Source: an uncultured Granulicella sp. (lineage in GTDB: Bacteria > Acidobacteriota > Terriglobia > Terriglobales > Acidobacteriaceae). From it: a DNA stretch of 64,000 bases. Below are positions 55,218 to 60,893 of the stretch, one piece after another. Under the pieces are notes generated by a model. It was given only the letters and a program-made list of their open reading frames with translations. It did no database searches and was not told the origin of the DNA. Position 1 is the stretch's first letter. Each line of letters starts with the position of its first letter. A program made the translations under genes and the position numbers. The stretch lies in assembly GCA_903932155.1 (NCBI GenBank), contig CAIZFH010000285.1, forward strand, positions 1,351 through 65,350. The letters run 5' to 3'.

Positions 55218-55412
55218 GTGGTGGAACGTACAGATTCCGTGATGCTTGAACTAACCCCCGTATGTAGAAGCGGCATCCGAACATTTACGTCTCCAAATCG
55301 AGACATAACGTGCCTGGATTCGCGATTCATTACAGGCATCTGCTCACATTTGACGCGATAGTACAGCGAGTCTACGCTTTGGGTGGAGTGGAAATTAGAT
55401 CGGGAATTCAGG

Positions 55413-56555
55413 ATGAGAGAAACCTTGATTGACAGCATGAAGCATCATAATTCCGCCGCGGAAACGAGGCGTCATCTCTTCTATGAAACCTCGCATTCAC
55501 CGGCCCTTGCAGACCTGGTAGGGTACGAAAAAGCCAGGGATATCGTTGACTTCTGTTTCATAGCCAACCCCTATTACCCAACCCGCGAGATGTTGGAGGA
55601 CATGCAGAATAGCCTGCCCAACCTGATCAAATCCTACCCTTCTAGCAATCCGATACTGAGCCAGAATAATCTGGCGGCGGTCCTGCATGTCGATCCAGAA
55701 AGGCTGATCATCGGCAACGGAGCGACAGAACTGATCGCCCTGATGGATATGACTTTAATTGACCGTATTGGAATACCTATTCCCACATTCGGCGAGTACA
55801 TCGAAAAAATGAAGGACATGCGGAACGCCGAATTGTACTCGCTCGATCCGGGTCAACGGTACAAACTGCATCTAGATGACTATCTAGCCTGGGCACAGGC
55901 GCGAAAGCTGGCATGTCTGCTGGTAATCAATCCGGGTAATCCGACGGGGCAATTCATTCCGTTCGAAGAAATGGTGGAGTTTCTGCAGCAGGCTCGCGAT
56001 CTGGAACTCGTAATCGTTGACGAATCATTTATCGATTTTGCAGGCGACCCTGTTCCGAGTTTGCTTCCGATTGCCGACCAATTTACGAATCTGCTGATTG
56101 TTCGCAGCATGAGCAAGCATTGCGGCGTTCCTGGATTGCGCCTGGGTTACTGCTATAGCGCCAATCTGTATATTCTTAACCGCTTGCGCCGTTTCGTGCC
56201 CACCTGGAATTTAAATACTTTGGCGCAGTATTTTCTTTCTCTTCTTCTCGACTCCGATGACGTCTATCACCAGTGCCGTAAGAGGTTGATAGGGGACGTC
56301 AGTTGTCTATACGAAGCTCTGCTTACAATCCCTGGCTTGGACGTCTATCCTACCGGCGCAAACTTCGTGCTCTTCAAAATCAAAAATGGAATGACTGCTA
56401 CAGAACTCCAAACACGACTGCTGGTCGAGAACGAAATGTATGTACGCGACTGCTCGAATAAGCTTGGCATGGACATGTCACATATCCGCGTTGCATCACA
56501 GGGCCGCGAGAAGGATGCCCGCCTGGTGGAAGCGCTGCGGAGTATCTTCCTATGA
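55413..56555 (+). CDS. class I/II PLP-dependent enzyme (HisC/CobD-like aminotransferase or decarboxylase fold)
   Basis: NPGNPTG and SMSKHCGVPGLRLGY (PLP lysine). Low GC (~48%). Start uncertain (GTG 55383, ATG 55413, ATG 55437). Confidence 0.8.
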   Translation: MRETLIDSMKHHNSAAETRRHLFYETSHSPALADLVGYEKARDIVDFCFIANPYYPTREMLEDMQNSLPNLIKSYPSSNPILSQNNLAAVLHVDPERLIIGNGATELIALMDMTLIDRIGIPIPTFGEYIEKMKDMRNAELYSLDPGQRYKLHLDDYLAWAQARKLACLLVINPGNPTGQFIPFEEMVEFLQQARDLELVIVDESFIDFAGDPVPSLLPIADQFTNLLIVRSMSKHCGVPGLRLGYCYSANLYILNRLRRFVPTWNLNTLAQYFLSLLLDSDDVYHQCRKRLIGDVSCLYEALLTIPGLDVYPTGANFVLFKIKNGMTATELQTRLLVENEMYVRDCSNKLGMDMSHIRVASQGREKDARLVEALRSIFL

Positions 56556-57286
56556 AGCGCCCCATCGTTGTTGTCTGCTCCCGTCAAACAACTCGGAAAA
56601 ACAAACTCATCGATTACGTCGGCGAGTTGCATCTAGAGCTTCTAATCAATTTTCATACTCTGCCAGTTATTGTCCCCGTCGTAGCTGGCACTCCTGATTG
56701 CCTGCCCCAATACATGGAGTCCATGAACGGGCTCTTGCTAGTGGAAGGAGATGACGTTGAACCGAAACGATATGCGGCTCGGAAAACCAACTTTCAGTAT
56801 CTTGAAAAGACGCATCCCCTGAAAGACGAAATTGAGATATGCCTGCTACACCATGCATTACTTCGTAAGATCCCCGTTCTGGGAATATGTCGCGGATCGC
56901 AATTGTTGAATGTGGTATGCGGCGGTACGCTATTCGGCGATGTACAAAAGGAAACAGGCTCGAATCGTCCACATATCGACTATCAGAATTACGACACGTA
57001 CAGGCATCCCGCTTATGTAGTTCCCGGCACGCCGCTGGCACGCTGGTATCGCAGGAAAACACTGTCTGTGAACAGCTATCACCATCAGGGAATTCGCAAG
57101 TTGGCGGATCGCTTCCGTCCTATGGCGTATGCAGATGACGGTTTGATCGAAGCCTATCATGATCCTGAATCTGCCTTCCTGGTAGGACTTCAATTTCATC
57201 CCGAACGCATGTTGAACGAATATGCTGGGAATTTGAAGGTGTGGAAGGCTTTCACCTCTGCGGTGCATAACACTCAAAAGCTATAG
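56552..57286 (+). CDS. class I glutamine amidotransferase-like hydrolase, peptidase C26 / PuuD (gamma-glutamyl-GABA hydrolase) family
   Basis: GICRGSQLLNV (Cys nucleophile), NSYHHQGI, GLQFHPE. ATGA overlap with the upstream PLP gene. Low GC. Confidence 0.8.
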   Translation: MKRPIVVVCSRQTTRKNKLIDYVGELHLELLINFHTLPVIVPVVAGTPDCLPQYMESMNGLLLVEGDDVEPKRYAARKTNFQYLEKTHPLKDEIEICLLHHALLRKIPVLGICRGSQLLNVVCGGTLFGDVQKETGSNRPHIDYQNYDTYRHPAYVVPGTPLARWYRRKTLSVNSYHHQGIRKLADRFRPMAYADDGLIEAYHDPESAFLVGLQFHPERMLNEYAGNLKVWKAFTSAVHNTQKL

Positions 57287-57304
57287 TCGCTCGCGTGACC
57301 GCTC

Positions 57305-59311
57305 TTACCGCGTCGCCGTTGCCTCGTCCTTGTAGAACTCGGCGATCTCAGCGGCGTATTTCTTCTCCACCACGCGGCGCTTCAGCTTCATGCTGGGGGT
57401 GAGTTCGTCGGTCTCCACGGTCCACTCATCGGGAACCACAGCAATGCGTTTGATCGTCTCATAGGGTGCCAGCGTTGCATTCAGCTCATCGACGATGCGC
57501 TGGTAGCGCGCCACCACTTGCGGCACCTGCACCAGCGCCTTGCGATCGCCTGCAGGGTAGACGACGCCCTTCACCCGCGCCCAGTTCTCAAGGATGGCGA
57601 AGTTGGGCGATATAAGCGCGCAGGCGAACTTGTGCTTATCGCCGACCAGCGCGGCGTTGCCCACCAACATGTGGGCCTTCAGTTTGTTCTCGATCGGCTG
57701 CGGAGCAATCATCTTGCCGCCGCTGGTCTTCAGCATCTCCTTCTTGCGGTCGGTGATGGAGAGGAAGCCGTCGGCGTCGATGTGACCAATGTCTCCGGTG
57801 CGAAACCACCCATCCACTGTGAAGGCATGCGCCGTCTCCTCTGGCTTGTTCCAGTAGCCGCGGAAGACCGAAGGTCCGCGCACCTCCAGTTCGCCGTCCG
57901 GCGCGAAGCGCACCTCGACATTCTGTAGCACCGGCCCCACCGTTCCGATGCGATAGCGCAGCGGATCATCCACCGCAATCAGCGGCGAGGTCTCGGTGAG
58001 TCCATAGCCCTCGAAGATGCGAATCCCCACGTCGGCGAACCAACCTGCCGTATCCATTCCCAGCGGCGCGCCACCCGAGACGAAGAACTTCACCTTCCCG
58101 CCAAACGCCGCGCGAATCTTGGAGAAGACCAGCTTGTCTGCTATATATTGCGACCATTCTTTTACAGCAGCATAGACCGTATAAGACAACAAGCCTGCCA
58201 GACAGAAGATAAAAACAAGCGAGACCGTAAGGGTCAAGCGGTCGTGCTGCCCTGTTTTAATGCTCCTGAAAATATTGAACAACCAGAAAAACAGGAATAG
58301 TCCCCATAGAAGACGACCAACCCTGTGTAGATTTATCCATCGTGAAGATCGCTTCCCTGCCATCGTCTCGTCTCGATGACTTCGCCCAACGCGGAGCGCC
58401 CAGTTAAGAATAATTTTCTTTGCACCGTGCGACTTGCCCTCGATGCTCTGGCGGATCTTCTCATAGACACGTGGCACGGCCACCAGCAGCGTGGGCCGCA
58501 CCTGCTTCATCGCCGTGGCAATCTGGTCGAACTTAGGACAGTAGGCCAGTGTCACGCGCTCGTTCATCAGCGCGTAGTCCAAGTGGCGCGCCGTGACATG
58601 GGAGAGCGGAAGAAACGAGATGCAGCTATCCTCCTCGGTAAAGCCAAAGGGCCGCGTCGACAAGGTGAAATTGCTTGCCAGGTTGCCGTGGGTCAACATG
58701 ACGCCCTTGGGCTCGCCAGTGGTGCCAGAGGTGTAGATGATGGTTGCCAGATCCTCTGGTTGCACAGAGCGCGCCCGCGCGTCGAAATCCTCGTCACGCG
58801 CCTGCATTGTCTCCGCATTTTTCATCAATTCTGTAAAACTCTCTACCGGGAAAGGATATCCCGCGCCTTGATTGTGAGAGGTTGGTTCATTCATCACCAC
58901 CACGCGTTCAAGCGCTGGCAACTCGCCCGCCTCGCGCAGCTTCTCCACCTGCTCCCACGACGAGACCACGGCAACCTTCGCGCCGGAGTCGCGCAACATG
59001 TACCCCACTTGTTCCGGAGTCAGCGTCATGTAGAGCGGCACATCGACCGCGCCCAGCGCCAGCACGGCGAAGTCCGTCACCGGCCACTCCCAGCGGTTCT
59101 CGCTGACGAGCGCCACGCGATCGCCCTTAGCTACTCCCCATGCCTCCAACCGCGCCGCCAGCGCGCGCACCCGGCCATAAGCCAGCGCCGCCGTAATCGG
59201 CTTCCATTCGCCATCCACCCCCACGCTCGCGTCCAACCACCGCCAGACCACCTTGTCGCCACGTCCGCTCACCTTCAGAAACGCGTCGTTGATCGTCCTG
59301 ACATCCTGCAT
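57305..59311 (-). CDS. long-chain fatty-acid--CoA ligase (AMP-forming, FAA1/COG1022-like) with an internal two-helix hydrophobic insertion
   Basis: IIYTSGTTGEPKGVMLTH, GYGLTETS, WFRTGDIG, and a C-terminal TPSMKLKRR. Start ATG 59311. Confidence 0.85.
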   Translation of the reverse strand: MQDVRTINDAFLKVSGRGDKVVWRWLDASVGVDGEWKPITAALAYGRVRALAARLEAWGVAKGDRVALVSENRWEWPVTDFAVLALGAVDVPLYMTLTPEQVGYMLRDSGAKVAVVSSWEQVEKLREAGELPALERVVVMNEPTSHNQGAGYPFPVESFTELMKNAETMQARDEDFDARARSVQPEDLATIIYTSGTTGEPKGVMLTHGNLASNFTLSTRPFGFTEEDSCISFLPLSHVTARHLDYALMNERVTLAYCPKFDQIATAMKQVRPTLLVAVPRVYEKIRQSIEGKSHGAKKIILNWALRVGRSHRDETMAGKRSSRWINLHRVGRLLWGLFLFFWLFNIFRSIKTGQHDRLTLTVSLVFIFCLAGLLSYTVYAAVKEWSQYIADKLVFSKIRAAFGGKVKFFVSGGAPLGMDTAGWFADVGIRIFEGYGLTETSPLIAVDDPLRYRIGTVGPVLQNVEVRFAPDGELEVRGPSVFRGYWNKPEETAHAFTVDGWFRTGDIGHIDADGFLSITDRKKEMLKTSGGKMIAPQPIENKLKAHMLVGNAALVGDKHKFACALISPNFAILENWARVKGVVYPAGDRKALVQVPQVVARYQRIVDELNATLAPYETIKRIAVVPDEWTVETDELTPSMKLKRRVVEKKYAAEIAEFYKDEATATR

Positions 59312-59377
59312 GCAAAGCCCTCCAATCACTGCCCGGAAATGGCCCCATCCAGCCTACGCCGGCTAAATGCAAACGAA

Positions 59378-60775
59378 CTAGCAGCGAACGATCTTCTCGG
59401 ACGCGATACCCTTGGTGGCATTGCGCGTGTCTACAACCAGTCGCGACTGTTTCACAATTGCCGCGTAGTCGTAGTCGGAGTGGTCGGTCATAATCAGCAC
59501 GCAGTCGTACTGCTGTAGGTCAATCAGCGGCGTGGACGTCATATTCAGGTTGTAGTGGCGGCCCCGGCCCACCGTAGGGAAGTAGGGATCGTTGTATGCC
59601 ACCTCGGCCCCGTGCTCGCGCAGCAGTTCGATCACAGTTAACGAGGGCGACTCGCGCAGGTCGTCAATGTCTTTCTTGTAGGCCATGCCCAGCATCAGGA
59701 TATGCGCGCCGTTCATCGACTTTTTGTGTCCGTTCAGTGCCATGGCAACATACTGCACTACATGCGCGGGCATCGCCTCATTTACCTCTCCGGCCAGTTC
59801 GATGAAGCGAGTGTTGAAGTCGTATTCGCGGGCCTTCCAACTGAGATAGAACGGGTCAATAGGGATGCAGTGCCCGCCCAGGCCCGGCCCCGGATAGAAG
59901 GGCTGAAACCCGAATGGTTTGGTGGAAGCCGCGTCGATCACCTCCCAGATGTCCACGCCCATGCGCAGCGAGAGCAACTTAAGTTCGTTGACCAGCGCTA
60001 TGTTGACGCAGCGGTAGATGTTCTCCAGAAGCTTGGTCATCTCCGCCACACGGGTGGAAGAGACGCGTACCGCGCGGGTAAATATACCCTCGTAGAGGGT
60101 TGCCGCAAGCTCGGTGGCGATGGCCTCGTGCCCGCCCACCACCTTGGGAATGTCGCGCCGCGCCACGGTGACATTGCCGGGATCTTCGCGCTCCGGGGAA
60201 AATGCCACATAGAAGACGCCGCGTTCTGCCGCGGCTTCCCTGCCCTGTACCTTCAATCCCTGCGAGCTGCCCACCTCCAGCACGGGAATCAACAGCTCCT
60301 CGGTCGTCCCCGGATAGGTTGTGCTCTCCAGCACCACTAACTGACCTTCACGAATCCATGGCGCTACAGCCTTGGCAGTATTCTCCACAAAGCTCAGGTC
60401 CGGCTCACGATGCTCGGTCAAAGGCGTAGGAACGCAGAGAATAATGGCGTCCTGGTCCGACAGGCAGGCAAAATCCGTAGTAGCAGAAAAACCCTGTTGC
60501 CGTGCAGTCGCGATCTCTGTCGGCAGAATACGTAGGATGTAGGATCGGCCAGCTTCCAGGTCGTCCACTTTTTTTGTGTCATTGTCGAAACCCGTCACTT
60601 TAAATCCGGCCTCGGAGAAGAGCAGTGAGAGAGGCAACCCAACATATCCCAGTCCGATGACACCAATCCGGGCGGTGCGTGCCCGGAGTCGATCAAGACG
60701 TTTCTGGGCGATCAGCGGCAGGACAACTTGGTTTGATTTTGGCTGGCTGGTCTTAGGCAGGTTGGGATTCGGCAT
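59378..60775 (-). CDS. nucleotide-sugar 6-dehydrogenase (UDP-GlcNAc/ManNAc dehydrogenase, WbpA/WecC/TviB-like)
   Basis: IGVIGLGYVGLPLS Rossmann motif and GPGLGGHCIPIDP catalytic Cys. Start ATG 60775. Confidence 0.85.
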   Translation of the reverse strand: MPNPNLPKTSQPKSNQVVLPLIAQKRLDRLRARTARIGVIGLGYVGLPLSLLFSEAGFKVTGFDNDTKKVDDLEAGRSYILRILPTEIATARQQGFSATTDFACLSDQDAIILCVPTPLTEHREPDLSFVENTAKAVAPWIREGQLVVLESTTYPGTTEELLIPVLEVGSSQGLKVQGREAAAERGVFYVAFSPEREDPGNVTVARRDIPKVVGGHEAIATELAATLYEGIFTRAVRVSSTRVAEMTKLLENIYRCVNIALVNELKLLSLRMGVDIWEVIDAASTKPFGFQPFYPGPGLGGHCIPIDPFYLSWKAREYDFNTRFIELAGEVNEAMPAHVVQYVAMALNGHKKSMNGAHILMLGMAYKKDIDDLRESPSLTVIELLREHGAEVAYNDPYFPTVGRGRHYNLNMTSTPLIDLQQYDCVLIMTDHSDYDYAAIVKQSRLVVDTRNATKGIASEKIVRC

Positions 60776-60893
60776 GATCCCGATTATCGCATTCAGTCCC
60801 ATACAAGGAGCGCAATTTCATGTACTCGTACAACCATTCGCACTATCCGGCGACGAATATCCTATAAAATTCGACCAGCCGAATAGAAGGACC

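Follow-up and report, generated by a model that had tools for sequence, protein, structure and literature searches.

The fatty-acid–CoA ligases of bacteria are regarded as either soluble or peripheral proteins. Escherichia coli FadD, which acts together with FadL in vectorial acylation, and Mycobacterium tuberculosis FadD13, a peripheral membrane ligase, are considered to work at the inner membrane face, where fatty acids entering the cell are captured as CoA esters, while the eukaryotic ACSL1/3/4, the FATP/ACSVL proteins and the relatives of yeast Faa1 are membrane-anchored acyl-CoA synthetases. Hypervariable cassettes bounded by conserved recombination arms are known from the middle domain of FliC, the target-recognition domains of HsdS and the loops of outer-membrane proteins, and the Rickettsia palindromic elements (RPEs) are selfish repeats that lie in frame within protein genes. 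Vakirlis et al. are said to have described, in 2020, de novo membrane segments arising from thymine-rich sequence, in that case as whole new ORFs from yeast intergenic DNA. Literature searches for internal transmembrane (TM) hairpins in acyl-CoA synthetases gave nothing relevant, and E. coli Aas, considered as an earlier case of a TM hairpin in an adenylate-forming domain, was rejected, its hydrophobicity profile showing no comparable hairpin.

The window analyzed here, a 64,000-nucleotide stretch of DNA from an uncultured Granulicella sp., contains a ligase gene in which, on our reading, a hypervariable allelic cassette that is exchanged by homologous recombination probably encodes an optional inner-membrane anchor. 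The locations of the gene, its upstream neighbor and the parts of the cassette are collected in Table 1.

Table 1. Location of the ligase gene, its neighbor and the parts of the insert within the window
Feature	Residues	Positions	Strand	Basis
Nucleotide-sugar dehydrogenase gene, upstream of ligase		59378..60802	minus (as ligase)	ORF
Long-chain acyl-CoA synthetase gene, COG1022 / FadD11-like ANL enzyme		57305..59329	minus	ORF list and translation
Adenylate-forming signature TSGTTGEPKG	200-209	58703..58732	minus	Invariant columns
Conserved upstream arm PTLLVAVPRVYEKIRQSIEGKSHGAKKIILNWALRVG	279-315	58385..58495	minus	Many invariant columns; crossover site
Variable block, apparently recombining (approximate)	~316-396	58142..58384	minus	Homology to L121/L123/L124 boundaries
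Hairpin insert, 67 residues (RWINLH...SQYI)	330-396	58142..58342	minus	Missing from most orthologues
Helix 1 hydrophobic core LLWGLFLFFWLFNIF	340-354	58268..58312	minus	Between Arg339 and Arg355
Polar turn RSIKTGQHDR	355-364	58238..58267	minus	Between two AlphaFold2 helices
Hydrophobic helix 2 LTLTVSLVFIFCLAGLLSYTVYAAV	365-389	58163..58237	minus	Hydrophobicity maximum of protein
Conserved downstream arm ADKLVFSKIRAAFGGKVKFFVSGGAPLG	397-424	58058..58141	minus	Invariant or near-invariant columns; downstream breakpoints

The ligase comprises 674 amino acids when read from the GTG at 59329; since orthologues begin at MxDVxTIND, the ATG at 59311 is favored as the likely true start, which would give a protein of 668 amino acids. 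Pfam matches to AMP-binding (3.3e-76) and AMP-binding_C_3 (5.1e-10), with scores of 257 bits for PF00501 (cutoff 29.9) and 40.2 bits for PF23562 (cutoff 20.8), indicate that both ANL domains are present. The top Foldseek matches, all at a probability of 1.00, were the A-domains of CARs and a Thermus LC-FACS, and the FadD13 structures 3R44 and 3T5B were also matched. The best named family was NCBIfam NF038343 (FadD11, an exception-level model), which scored 397.8 bits in two stretches with the insert between them; as the curated cutoff is 950 bits, the ligase is not a curated-level FadD11 member. Besides the adenylate-forming signature, the GYGLTE motif (441-446) and the FACS-type DGWFRTGDIG...DRKK motif (506-530) are intact, and the adenylation and FACS motif columns displayed no variation in 79 orthologues, hairpin-bearing and hairpin-free. 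The best explanation of these features is that the gene encodes a catalytically intact COG1022-type long-chain fatty-acid–CoA ligase, the activity of which is predicted. Like FadD and FadD13, it is an ANL-fold long-chain ligase with intact adenylation motifs; however, it belongs to the COG1022/FadD11-like branch rather than the FadD branch, and whereas those enzymes are peripheral and use reversible surface patches, a hydrophobic hairpin is present here within the N-terminal domain. With the eukaryotic ACSL enzymes it shares the subfamily (COG1022 being the FAA1/ACSL-like branch) and, as proposed here, permanent tethering by a hydrophobic segment or hairpin, but theirs is N-terminal and fixed for each paralogue, while the one described here lies inside the protein, is optional and differs greatly from strain to strain.

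An earlier note on this DNA, made from the sequence alone, had claimed that about 60 residues at 58143-58345 add two hydrophobic helices in frame to a COG1022 ligase that normally has only a short linker at this site, and that the DNA encoding them is AT-richer than the rest of the gene. Orthologue alignment, Kyte–Doolittle analysis and AlphaFold2 prediction all confirmed the addition; the segment is real, with edges 1–3 nt away from those first given and a length of 67 residues. The linker has 9–12 residues in 128 of 166 aligned relatives, against 70 in this ligase, and about 24 residues are found at the site in 150 distant representatives, against 82 here. In the hairpin-free orthologues, the site is a loop of about nine residues (...PGGLxWKL) at the tip of a surface helix-loop-helix. 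The insert has a GC content of 0.433 and a GC3 of 0.49; for the remainder of the ligase gene, these values are 0.614 and 0.78.

The insert opens with a basic stalk that leads into helix 1; a polar turn connects this to helix 2, and the sequence KEWSQYI closes the segment. The core of helix 1 is a run of 15 uncharged residues with a mean Kyte–Doolittle value of 2.12, and helix 2 has 25 uncharged residues. When the whole protein was scanned with 19-residue Kyte–Doolittle windows, values of at least 1.6 were found only at residues 372-381, where helix 2 peaks at 2.17; helix 1 peaks at ~ 1.4, and the N terminus of the ligase is not hydrophobic. On a Hessa-type scale with approximate values, helix 2 scored -1.0 kcal/mol and the best window elsewhere in the protein +7.2 kcal/mol, while the membrane-insertion energy of helix 1 by itself was marginal (+3.8 kcal/mol). 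The AlphaFold2 model, in which confidence for the whole ligase is moderate (mean pLDDT 72), places a long helical hairpin here, with helices at 330-359 and 364-408 and a pLDDT of 76-90 across the block.

The same design was found when 31 hairpins were compared. Each has two hydrophobic segments (31 of 31), with at least one strongly hydrophobic segment in all except P0113 and a partner segment that is often marginal. The pooled counts of K+R against D+E are 62/16 for the N-terminal flanks and 46/16 for the C-terminal flanks, compared with 47/40 for the turns, and basic flanks around a neutral turn fit the positive-inside rule for a hairpin with both ends in the cytoplasm. In this cassette, the N-terminal flank has four basic and no acidic residues and the turn three basic and one acidic. 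The marginal helix 1, together with the three basic residues in the turn, makes full spanning less certain here than for several other cassette types. Nevertheless, the hydrophobic predicted hairpin and the positive-inside pattern support membrane tethering, one of the two possibilities offered in the earlier note, as its most plausible role. Most likely, it inserts in the cytoplasmic membrane and keeps both ends in the cell interior; if it spans, the periplasmic tip would be formed by the turn.

Of 180 close Acidobacteriaceae orthologue clusters, 40 (about 22%) have an insert of two helices in precisely the same position and the remaining ~ 78% are hairpin-free; no such insert was identified in 150 representatives of more distant orthologues with 38–56% identity. 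At least 9 of 141 species in the same GTDB genus have the hairpin. The hairpin is thus absent from most orthologues, and it is neither a standard feature of the subfamily nor private to this genome. The 35 unique hairpin sequences fall into 20 types when grouped at 50% identity and into 14 when grouped at 40%; identity between types is below 30%, and the open frame and two-helix design are kept in all 40 clusters. Hairpin alleles recur widely, individual ones having been found on as many as 47, 43 and 18 contigs, and one of the contigs is 2.59 Mb long. This exact cassette has only one relative, P0122, among 5.8 billion clusters. Helix 1 is 100% conserved in P0122, and its turn is shorter than that of the window's ligase. 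Comparison of P0001 with P0122 gave a dN/dS of 0.37 for the insert and of 0.13 for the remainder of the gene, demonstrating that purifying selection acts within this cassette type, and dS values of 0.45 and 0.57, respectively, indicating that the insert has co-diverged with the gene.

Evidence for cassette swapping was obtained mostly from metagenome assemblies and metagenome-assembled genomes (MAGs) rather than isolates. Contigs L121, L123 and L124 are 99.1–99.9% identical for 0.9–1.6 kb on each side of three unrelated cassettes and differ only in a block of ~ 220–270 nt holding the hairpin, with breakpoints that vary slightly by pair. Placed by homology to these sharp boundaries, the variable block of the window's ligase gene runs from just past LNWALRVG to just short of ADKLVFSK. 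The first 840 nt of the hairpin-bearing P0067 and the hairpin-free P0070 are essentially identical, at 100% save for one 60-nt window. Conversely, one cassette, termed NSDRY, is 96–100% identical across genes whose N-terminal domains are just 64–80% identical. Between L095 and L097, nucleotide identity is 98–100% over codons ~ 285–400, third positions included, and 80–90% elsewhere; this tract begins in the conserved upstream arm, where identity breakpoints are also located. In the gene tree, hairpin-bearing and hairpin-free sequences are intermixed with high support. Taken together, these sequence comparisons point firmly to horizontal movement of the block through homologous recombination, the crossovers lying in the conserved flanks. 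For the window's own allele, exchange by recombination is suggested indirectly; third-position identity to its closest hairpin-free orthologues is 31–50% in the 30–45 codons upstream and 70–80% elsewhere. NSDRY cassette DNA had no match in 400 genomes from 142 genera of the family, very few of them from the relevant genus, so all that this search shows is that the cassette has no wide distribution beyond that genus.

In the reading that we consider probable, the surface loop of about nine residues has been replaced by the 67-residue helical hairpin. The effect that we infer on enzyme function is that a peripheral or soluble ligase would become a permanently anchored enzyme, which might take fatty acids straight from the bilayer for vectorial acylation. 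The site itself is a hypervariable cassette locus occupied either by a null allele or by one of at least 14–20 very different hairpins, and a block of roughly 220–350 nt passes between strains and species by homologous recombination, using the conserved flanks as crossover sites. This polymorphism extends over one GTDB genus of the Acidobacteriaceae and related metagenome sequences. As in Vakirlis et al., T-rich and compositionally unbiased coding sequence gives hydrophobic helices here, and by analogy a thymine-rich de novo route is possible as the origin of the first hairpin; here, however, the segment lies within an old enzyme, is under purifying selection and circulates as alleles.

It could be that the hairpin is indeed an anchor and that its diversity is maintained not by drift but by negative frequency-dependent selection driven by an antagonist that exploits the membrane-embedded or periplasm-exposed hairpin, for example a phage whose DNA enters the cell, or a bacteriocin or contact-dependent toxin that is imported, by way of a protein in the inner membrane. 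Such selection would hold many cassettes and the null allele, as at surface-antigen loci. The occurrence of unrelated cassettes on 99–100% identical backgrounds, of one cassette in diverged backgrounds and species, and of null and hairpin alleles on a common background, together with the count of at least 14–20 types, amounts to a sharp peak of diversity limited to ~ 250 nt, the pattern classically left when balancing selection acts together with recombination. The antagonist is a putative one, however, the exposed turn has merely 1–21 residues, and the dN/dS of 0.37 in the one measurable cassette type signals purifying rather than positive selection; weak constraint on the anchor sequence, combined with great age and frequent recombination, might look alike. 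We regard selection by an antagonist as rather unlikely. The locus resembles FliC, HsdS and the outer-membrane protein loops in that a short, diverse block within a conserved gene is swapped by homologous recombination with variable crossovers, one block type occurring in diverged backgrounds and different types in identical ones, but there the variable parts are exposed at the surface or determine DNA specificity and have clear grounds for diversification, whereas here a cytoplasmic enzyme of lipid metabolism has a variable pair of membrane helices and the null allele is the commonest.

The base composition of the cassettes raises a further point. The insert peptide would have a GC3 of 0.72 +/- 0.05 under the genome's own codon usage, against the 0.49 found; the TM-like segments of 394 genes show no drop in GC3 (0.727 against 0.720), and 67-codon windows with GC3 this low make up 1.3% genome-wide. 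An origin of the low GC in hydrophobic residues or in TM coding generally is excluded by this control. Third positions are unbiased, being near-uniform, in every cassette examined, unlike those in ordinary membrane-protein segments of this genome, and the simple anchor model does not account for this. The region adjoining the insert downstream is also a low-GC islet. One speculative interpretation, which we hold to be unlikely, is that the locus is a balanced polymorphism across species, with at least 14–20 interchangeable hairpins and the null allele, which frequency-dependent selection would maintain; the hairpin would serve as an inner-membrane entry point, receptor or decoy for a phage, bacteriocin or contact-dependent toxin, and the third positions would be uniform as the DNA never pairs internally with a homologue. 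If true, the non-pairing cassette DNA would escape the force that raises GC3 elsewhere in these genomes, be it GC-biased gene conversion or codon selection.

It might also be that the hairpin is not transmembrane and instead dips into one leaflet as a monotopic element, binds a hydrophobic body or partner, or forms a lid or extension of the acyl tunnel that alters chain-length preference. The uncharged run in helix 1 is just 15 residues long, one of the two helices is marginal in many cassettes, the turn is basic in this cassette, and the site lies within a COG1022-specific helical subdomain of unestablished role, all of which would suit such a function. On the other hand, burial of a polar, charged tip within one leaflet would carry a high energetic cost, the charges of flanks and turn match those of a spanning hairpin with both ends inside, and the near-free variation in sequence, provided that two hydrophobic helices are kept, is typical of anchors and not of substrate-binding elements. 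An arrangement of this kind is judged quite unlikely, and a membrane-spanning anchor is preferred.

The atypical composition of the insert (GC3 of 0.49 and near-uniform third positions), the low-GC islet adjoining it and the single relative of this cassette among 5.8 billion clusters could be taken to mean that it is recent foreign, selfish or random T-rich DNA, in frame by chance and tolerated in a surface loop. This is very improbable given that the open frame and two-helix architecture are retained in 40 of 40 hairpin clusters despite identities below 30% between types, that dN/dS is 0.37 and dS like that of the rest of the gene, that the cassette is single-copy without terminal repeats, and that helix 1 is completely conserved in P0122. 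The earlier note had offered a recent insertion of foreign or repeat DNA as its alternative to tethering. Horizontal exchange of the block and its unusual composition give the foreign element of that suggestion a grain of truth, but the idea of a recent insertion private to this genome does not hold, as about 22% of close orthologue clusters have a hairpin here and dS is 0.45 against 0.57; a search of the genome for homologous sequence also disposed of repeat DNA, the segment being present once.

The cassette is single-copy in its own genome (97.7% complete), where searches with the cassette, with 31 other cassette peptides and with the boundary sequences gave no second copy; the NSDRY cassette likewise occurs once in G143 and once in G075. 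The insert is not flanked by any meaningful repeats, whether inverted or direct, and its RNA fold z-score is just -2.26. An in-frame selfish repeat or mobile element (RPE/MITE-like) is thus ruled out by the single copy and the lack of terminal repeats. Like an RPE, the cassette adds tens of residues in frame on the surface of a protein that is otherwise conserved and has a composition unlike that of the host gene, but RPEs are multi-copy, palindromic and spread over many genes, while the cassette is single-copy, has no inverted repeats and occupies one site in one gene. A diversity-generating retroelement (DGR) target or pilE/pilS-type conversion was also ruled out, as neither a template repeat nor a silent donor was found in the cassette's own genome, and so was an intein, which would have at least ~ 130 residues, an N-terminal Cys/Ser and a C-terminal His-Asn followed by Cys/Ser/Thr; the insert has 67 residues, reads RWIN...SQYI and is followed by Ala.

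That the mosaic was created artificially when the metagenomes were assembled or binned, through chimeric joins of co-occurring species, is barely credible even though most sequences come from metagenome contigs or MAGs and several contigs are short (2.5–3.9 kb), since a chimera would require two switches within ~ 300 nt, each through an exact k-mer overlap, and yet L121 and L122, from independent JGI and ENA assemblies, have the same allele and flanks at 99.9% identity, hairpin alleles lie on up to 47 contigs including the 2.59-Mb contig, and the pattern is repeated in four cassette families.

An internal membrane-spanning anchor, if true, would be a new architecture for this ligase family, and anchored and unanchored alleles on one genetic background would provide a natural test of vectorial acylation. 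The population pattern is the more surprising aspect, as a hypervariable cassette locus with presence/absence polymorphism, like those of surface antigens, lies within a housekeeping cytoplasmic enzyme. The hosts are abundant soil and peat bacteria, in which ~ 250 nt would offer a compact system for the study of recombination, balancing selection and GC3 evolution in the Acidobacteriaceae, together with a collection of over 30 minimal hairpins from nature, all compatible with one insertion site. Existing annotation describes all of these proteins just as 'long-chain acyl-CoA synthetase'. Finally, a UDPG_MGDP_dh gene is located directly upstream of the ligase gene in L125, L126 and L127, as it is in the window, and is thus a conserved neighbor.

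Alignment and structure prediction together showed that the long-chain acyl-CoA synthetase of the window (the ligase) carries an optional, hypervariable module of two predicted hydrophobic helices at the tip of a surface helix-loop-helix, with the ligase itself intact. The extra peptide quoted in the earlier note is present, and the hydrophobic helices described there were borne out, strongly hydrophobic windows occurring in the insert and nowhere else in the ligase. The Kyte-Doolittle profile (19-residue windows) peaked at 2.17 at residues 372-381, in insert helix 2, with helix 1 reaching ~1.4, and insertion scores of the Hessa type were -1.0 kcal/mol for helix 2, +3.8 for helix 1 and +7.2 for the best segment elsewhere. 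AlphaFold2, supplied with a 79-sequence alignment, predicted two long antiparallel helices (330-359 and 364-408; block pLDDT 76-90), the second continuing into a conserved helix of the enzyme. Helix 1 of the window's cassette is short, with 15 uncharged residues, and its turn is basic, so that a complete membrane crossing is less assured than in certain other types. Counted together, 31 hairpins had K+R/D+E of 62/16 and 46/16 in the flanks (net basic) and 47/40 in the turn (neutral), a pattern that would fit an in/in membrane hairpin.

Of the 120 top homologues from a collection of 5.8 billion clusters, roughly one third were 645-682 aa long and the others 593-621 aa. In the alignment, all of the long homologues had 46-65 extra residues at one same site, between ...AGKxP and (L)xWKL-ADKLVF, each insert comprising two hydrophobic stretches and a polar turn in very different sequences. 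With a second search included, the hairpin was present in 40 of 180 parsed clusters, every one of which retained the two-helix design and an open frame through the AT-richer DNA; these held 35 unique hairpin sequences (20 types at 50% identity, 14 at 40%). The description of the hairpin as an extra, non-standard segment therefore holds in that most orthologues lack it, but it is not private to this genome. Of 151 species sampled from the GTDB genus to which the window belongs, 141 had an orthologue and at least 9 of those the hairpin, own genome counted. The hairpin-free relatives that bear names belong to Edaphobacter, Granulicella and other Acidobacteriaceae, and an insert at the site was lacking in all 150 representatives at 38-56% identity. 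Terminal motifs recur in many types, for example (I)NLKPW at the start and RWxL at the end, and intermediate members bridge some types, a picture that suggests a single ancient origin and fast divergence thereafter. The sole relative of the window's exact hairpin was a metagenome fragment (P0122), 72% identical over the insert with helix 1 fully conserved. Against this fragment, dN/dS was 0.37 (dS 0.45) in the insert and 0.13 (dS 0.57) in the rest of the gene; judged by these rates, hairpin and gene have diverged together, with selection on the hairpin purifying but relaxed.

Comparison of related loci showed the hairpin to be a cassette, swapped as a ~220-350-nt block via homologous recombination. 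In a gene tree built with the insert columns left out, hairpin-bearing and hairpin-free sequences were interleaved with high support, and identical hairpins occurred in distant clades. The 'NSDRY' hairpin, a type other than the window's own, was 96-100% identical in four proteins with N-terminal domains only 64-80% identical. Between two species representatives (loci L095 in genome G143 and L097 in G075), DNA identity was 98-100% over codons ~285-400, third positions included, versus 80-90% outside them (third positions 50-80%). Three contigs of separate metagenome samples (L121, L123 and L124) were 99.1-99.9% identical for 0.9-1.6 kb on either side, neighbouring genes included, and wholly different in a ~220-270-nt block from just after LNWALGVG to ADKLVFSK, encoding three unrelated hairpins. 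The breakpoints shifted by a few bases from pair to pair, as expected of homologous and not site-specific recombination. Similarly, the first 840 nt of P0067 (hairpin) and P0070 (hairpin-free) were 100% identical bar one 60-nt window, followed by divergence across the block. Third-position identity of the window's ligase to its two closest hairpin-free orthologues was 70-80% in general but dropped to 31-50% over the 30-45 codons preceding the insert, suggesting that this block, too, has a separate history. It is unlikely that the mosaics are assembly chimeras, which would require double switches through exact k-mers; moreover, independent assemblies recovered one allele (L121/L122), and hairpin alleles recur on up to 47 contigs, as well as being seen on a contig of 2.59 Mb.

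The AT-richness remarked on earlier proved genuine, GC being 0.433 in the insert versus 0.614 in the remainder of the gene and GC3 0.49 versus 0.78. Hydrophobic residues or TM coding in general were ruled out as its cause: in 394 genes of the window's own genome with TM-like segments, GC3 was 0.727 within and 0.720 outside the segments, and codon usage predicted 0.72 +/- 0.05 for the insert peptide. A GC3 as low occurred in just 1.3% of that genome's 67-codon windows. Nine cassettes from different loci gave GC3 of 0.46-0.65 versus 0.76-0.87 in their genes, and third positions pooled over 13 cassette copies were near-uniform (A.17, C.27, G.28, T.27), compared with A.07, C.32, G.49, T.12 in the remainder of those genes. 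This composition looks like a steady state. Cassette interiors may escape GC-biased gene conversion by never pairing with a homologue, codon selection may be weaker on a barely constrained anchor, or slow translation may be selected during membrane targeting of an internal anchor. Recently inserted foreign DNA, one source proposed in the earlier note, cannot account for this composition, the cassette types being too diverged for a signature still awaiting amelioration. The other, repeat DNA, was not upheld: the window's cassette is single-copy in its genome (97.7% complete), as is the NSDRY cassette in each of its two genomes, the other cassette peptides and the boundary sequences had no copy in the window's genome, and the insert has neither terminal repeats nor marked RNA structure. 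An RPE- or MITE-like repeat, a DGR target with template repeat and supply from silent cassettes are thereby ruled out. The insert shows no intein hallmarks, and E. coli Aas, considered as a possible precedent, lacks such a hairpin.

We propose that the module is embedded in the inner membrane, its two ends facing the cytoplasm. The ligase would then be permanently membrane-bound and could carry out fatty-acid activation at the bilayer. Hydrophobicity and length would be all that counts in the module, permitting rapid sequence drift. Cassette diversity could be either merely tolerated or actively selected, and a narrow peak of diversity on near-clonal backgrounds, as seen here, would be expected under balancing selection. 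By analogy, the ligase may work like FadD-type ligases and, like eukaryotic ACSLs, would be anchored; the predicted anchor, however, is internal, optional and polymorphic, and no description of such an anchor in a ligase of this kind was found in the literature searched. In population behaviour the hairpin resembles the variable cassettes of flagellin and HsdS more than any published case in a metabolic enzyme. The findings at sequence level are firm; the topology, the role in physiology and the cause in evolution are put forward as proposals.

The enzyme, as its motifs indicate, is an adenylate-forming one of the long-chain acyl-CoA synthetase kind. Pfam returned AMP-binding (3.3e-76) and AMP-binding_C_3, all PDB sequence and Foldseek hits were ANL enzymes, and TSGTTGEPKG, GYGLTE and DGWFRTGDIG...DRKK are intact and invariant across 79 orthologues. 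The top NCBIfam model, FadD11, matched far under its curated cutoff and in two stretches. Numbering follows the listed version throughout; the probable start is the ATG at 59311 (668 aa), a Met seven codons in, where orthologues begin, as does the 668-aa database copy P0002. A second, smaller variable region was seen at 58850-58900 (aa ~147-165, NEPTSHNQGAGYPFPVESF), where identity to close orthologues falls to 52-60% with indels, between flanks at 90-100%. The genome also encodes a hairpin-free paralogue (contig C143:2764-4536, ~54% identity, ~590 aa), and thus one predicted-anchored and one unanchored COG1022 enzyme.

Coordinates of the ligase, its insert and neighbouring features
Feature	Position	Strand	Remark
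Ligase ORF	57305-59329	minus	674 aa as listed, from GTG 59329
Hairpin insert	58142-58342	minus	aa 330-396
PLP aminotransferase-like and C26 gamma-glutamyl hydrolase-like genes	55218-57300	opposite to ligase	just downstream of ligase
66-aa ORF	L121:772-972, L123:258-458, L124:399-599		

The two genes downstream have a GC of ~0.47-0.53 versus ~0.6 in the ligase, and the gene following the ligase differs in related loci (Lactamase_B, or a DUF433/DUF5615 pair), so the 3' side looks like a variable islet site. On the P0077 background, a conserved 66-aa ORF without a Pfam hit precedes the ligase by ~80 nt; in the window and in loci L125-L127 its position is occupied by a nucleotide-sugar dehydrogenase. 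In the 90% cluster of the homologue P0113, a 658-aa Acidobacteriaceae ligase is accompanied by a 35-aa Desulfosporosinus protein from NCBI that bears the annotation of an IS66 TnpB fragment, probably an oddity of database clustering and not biology.
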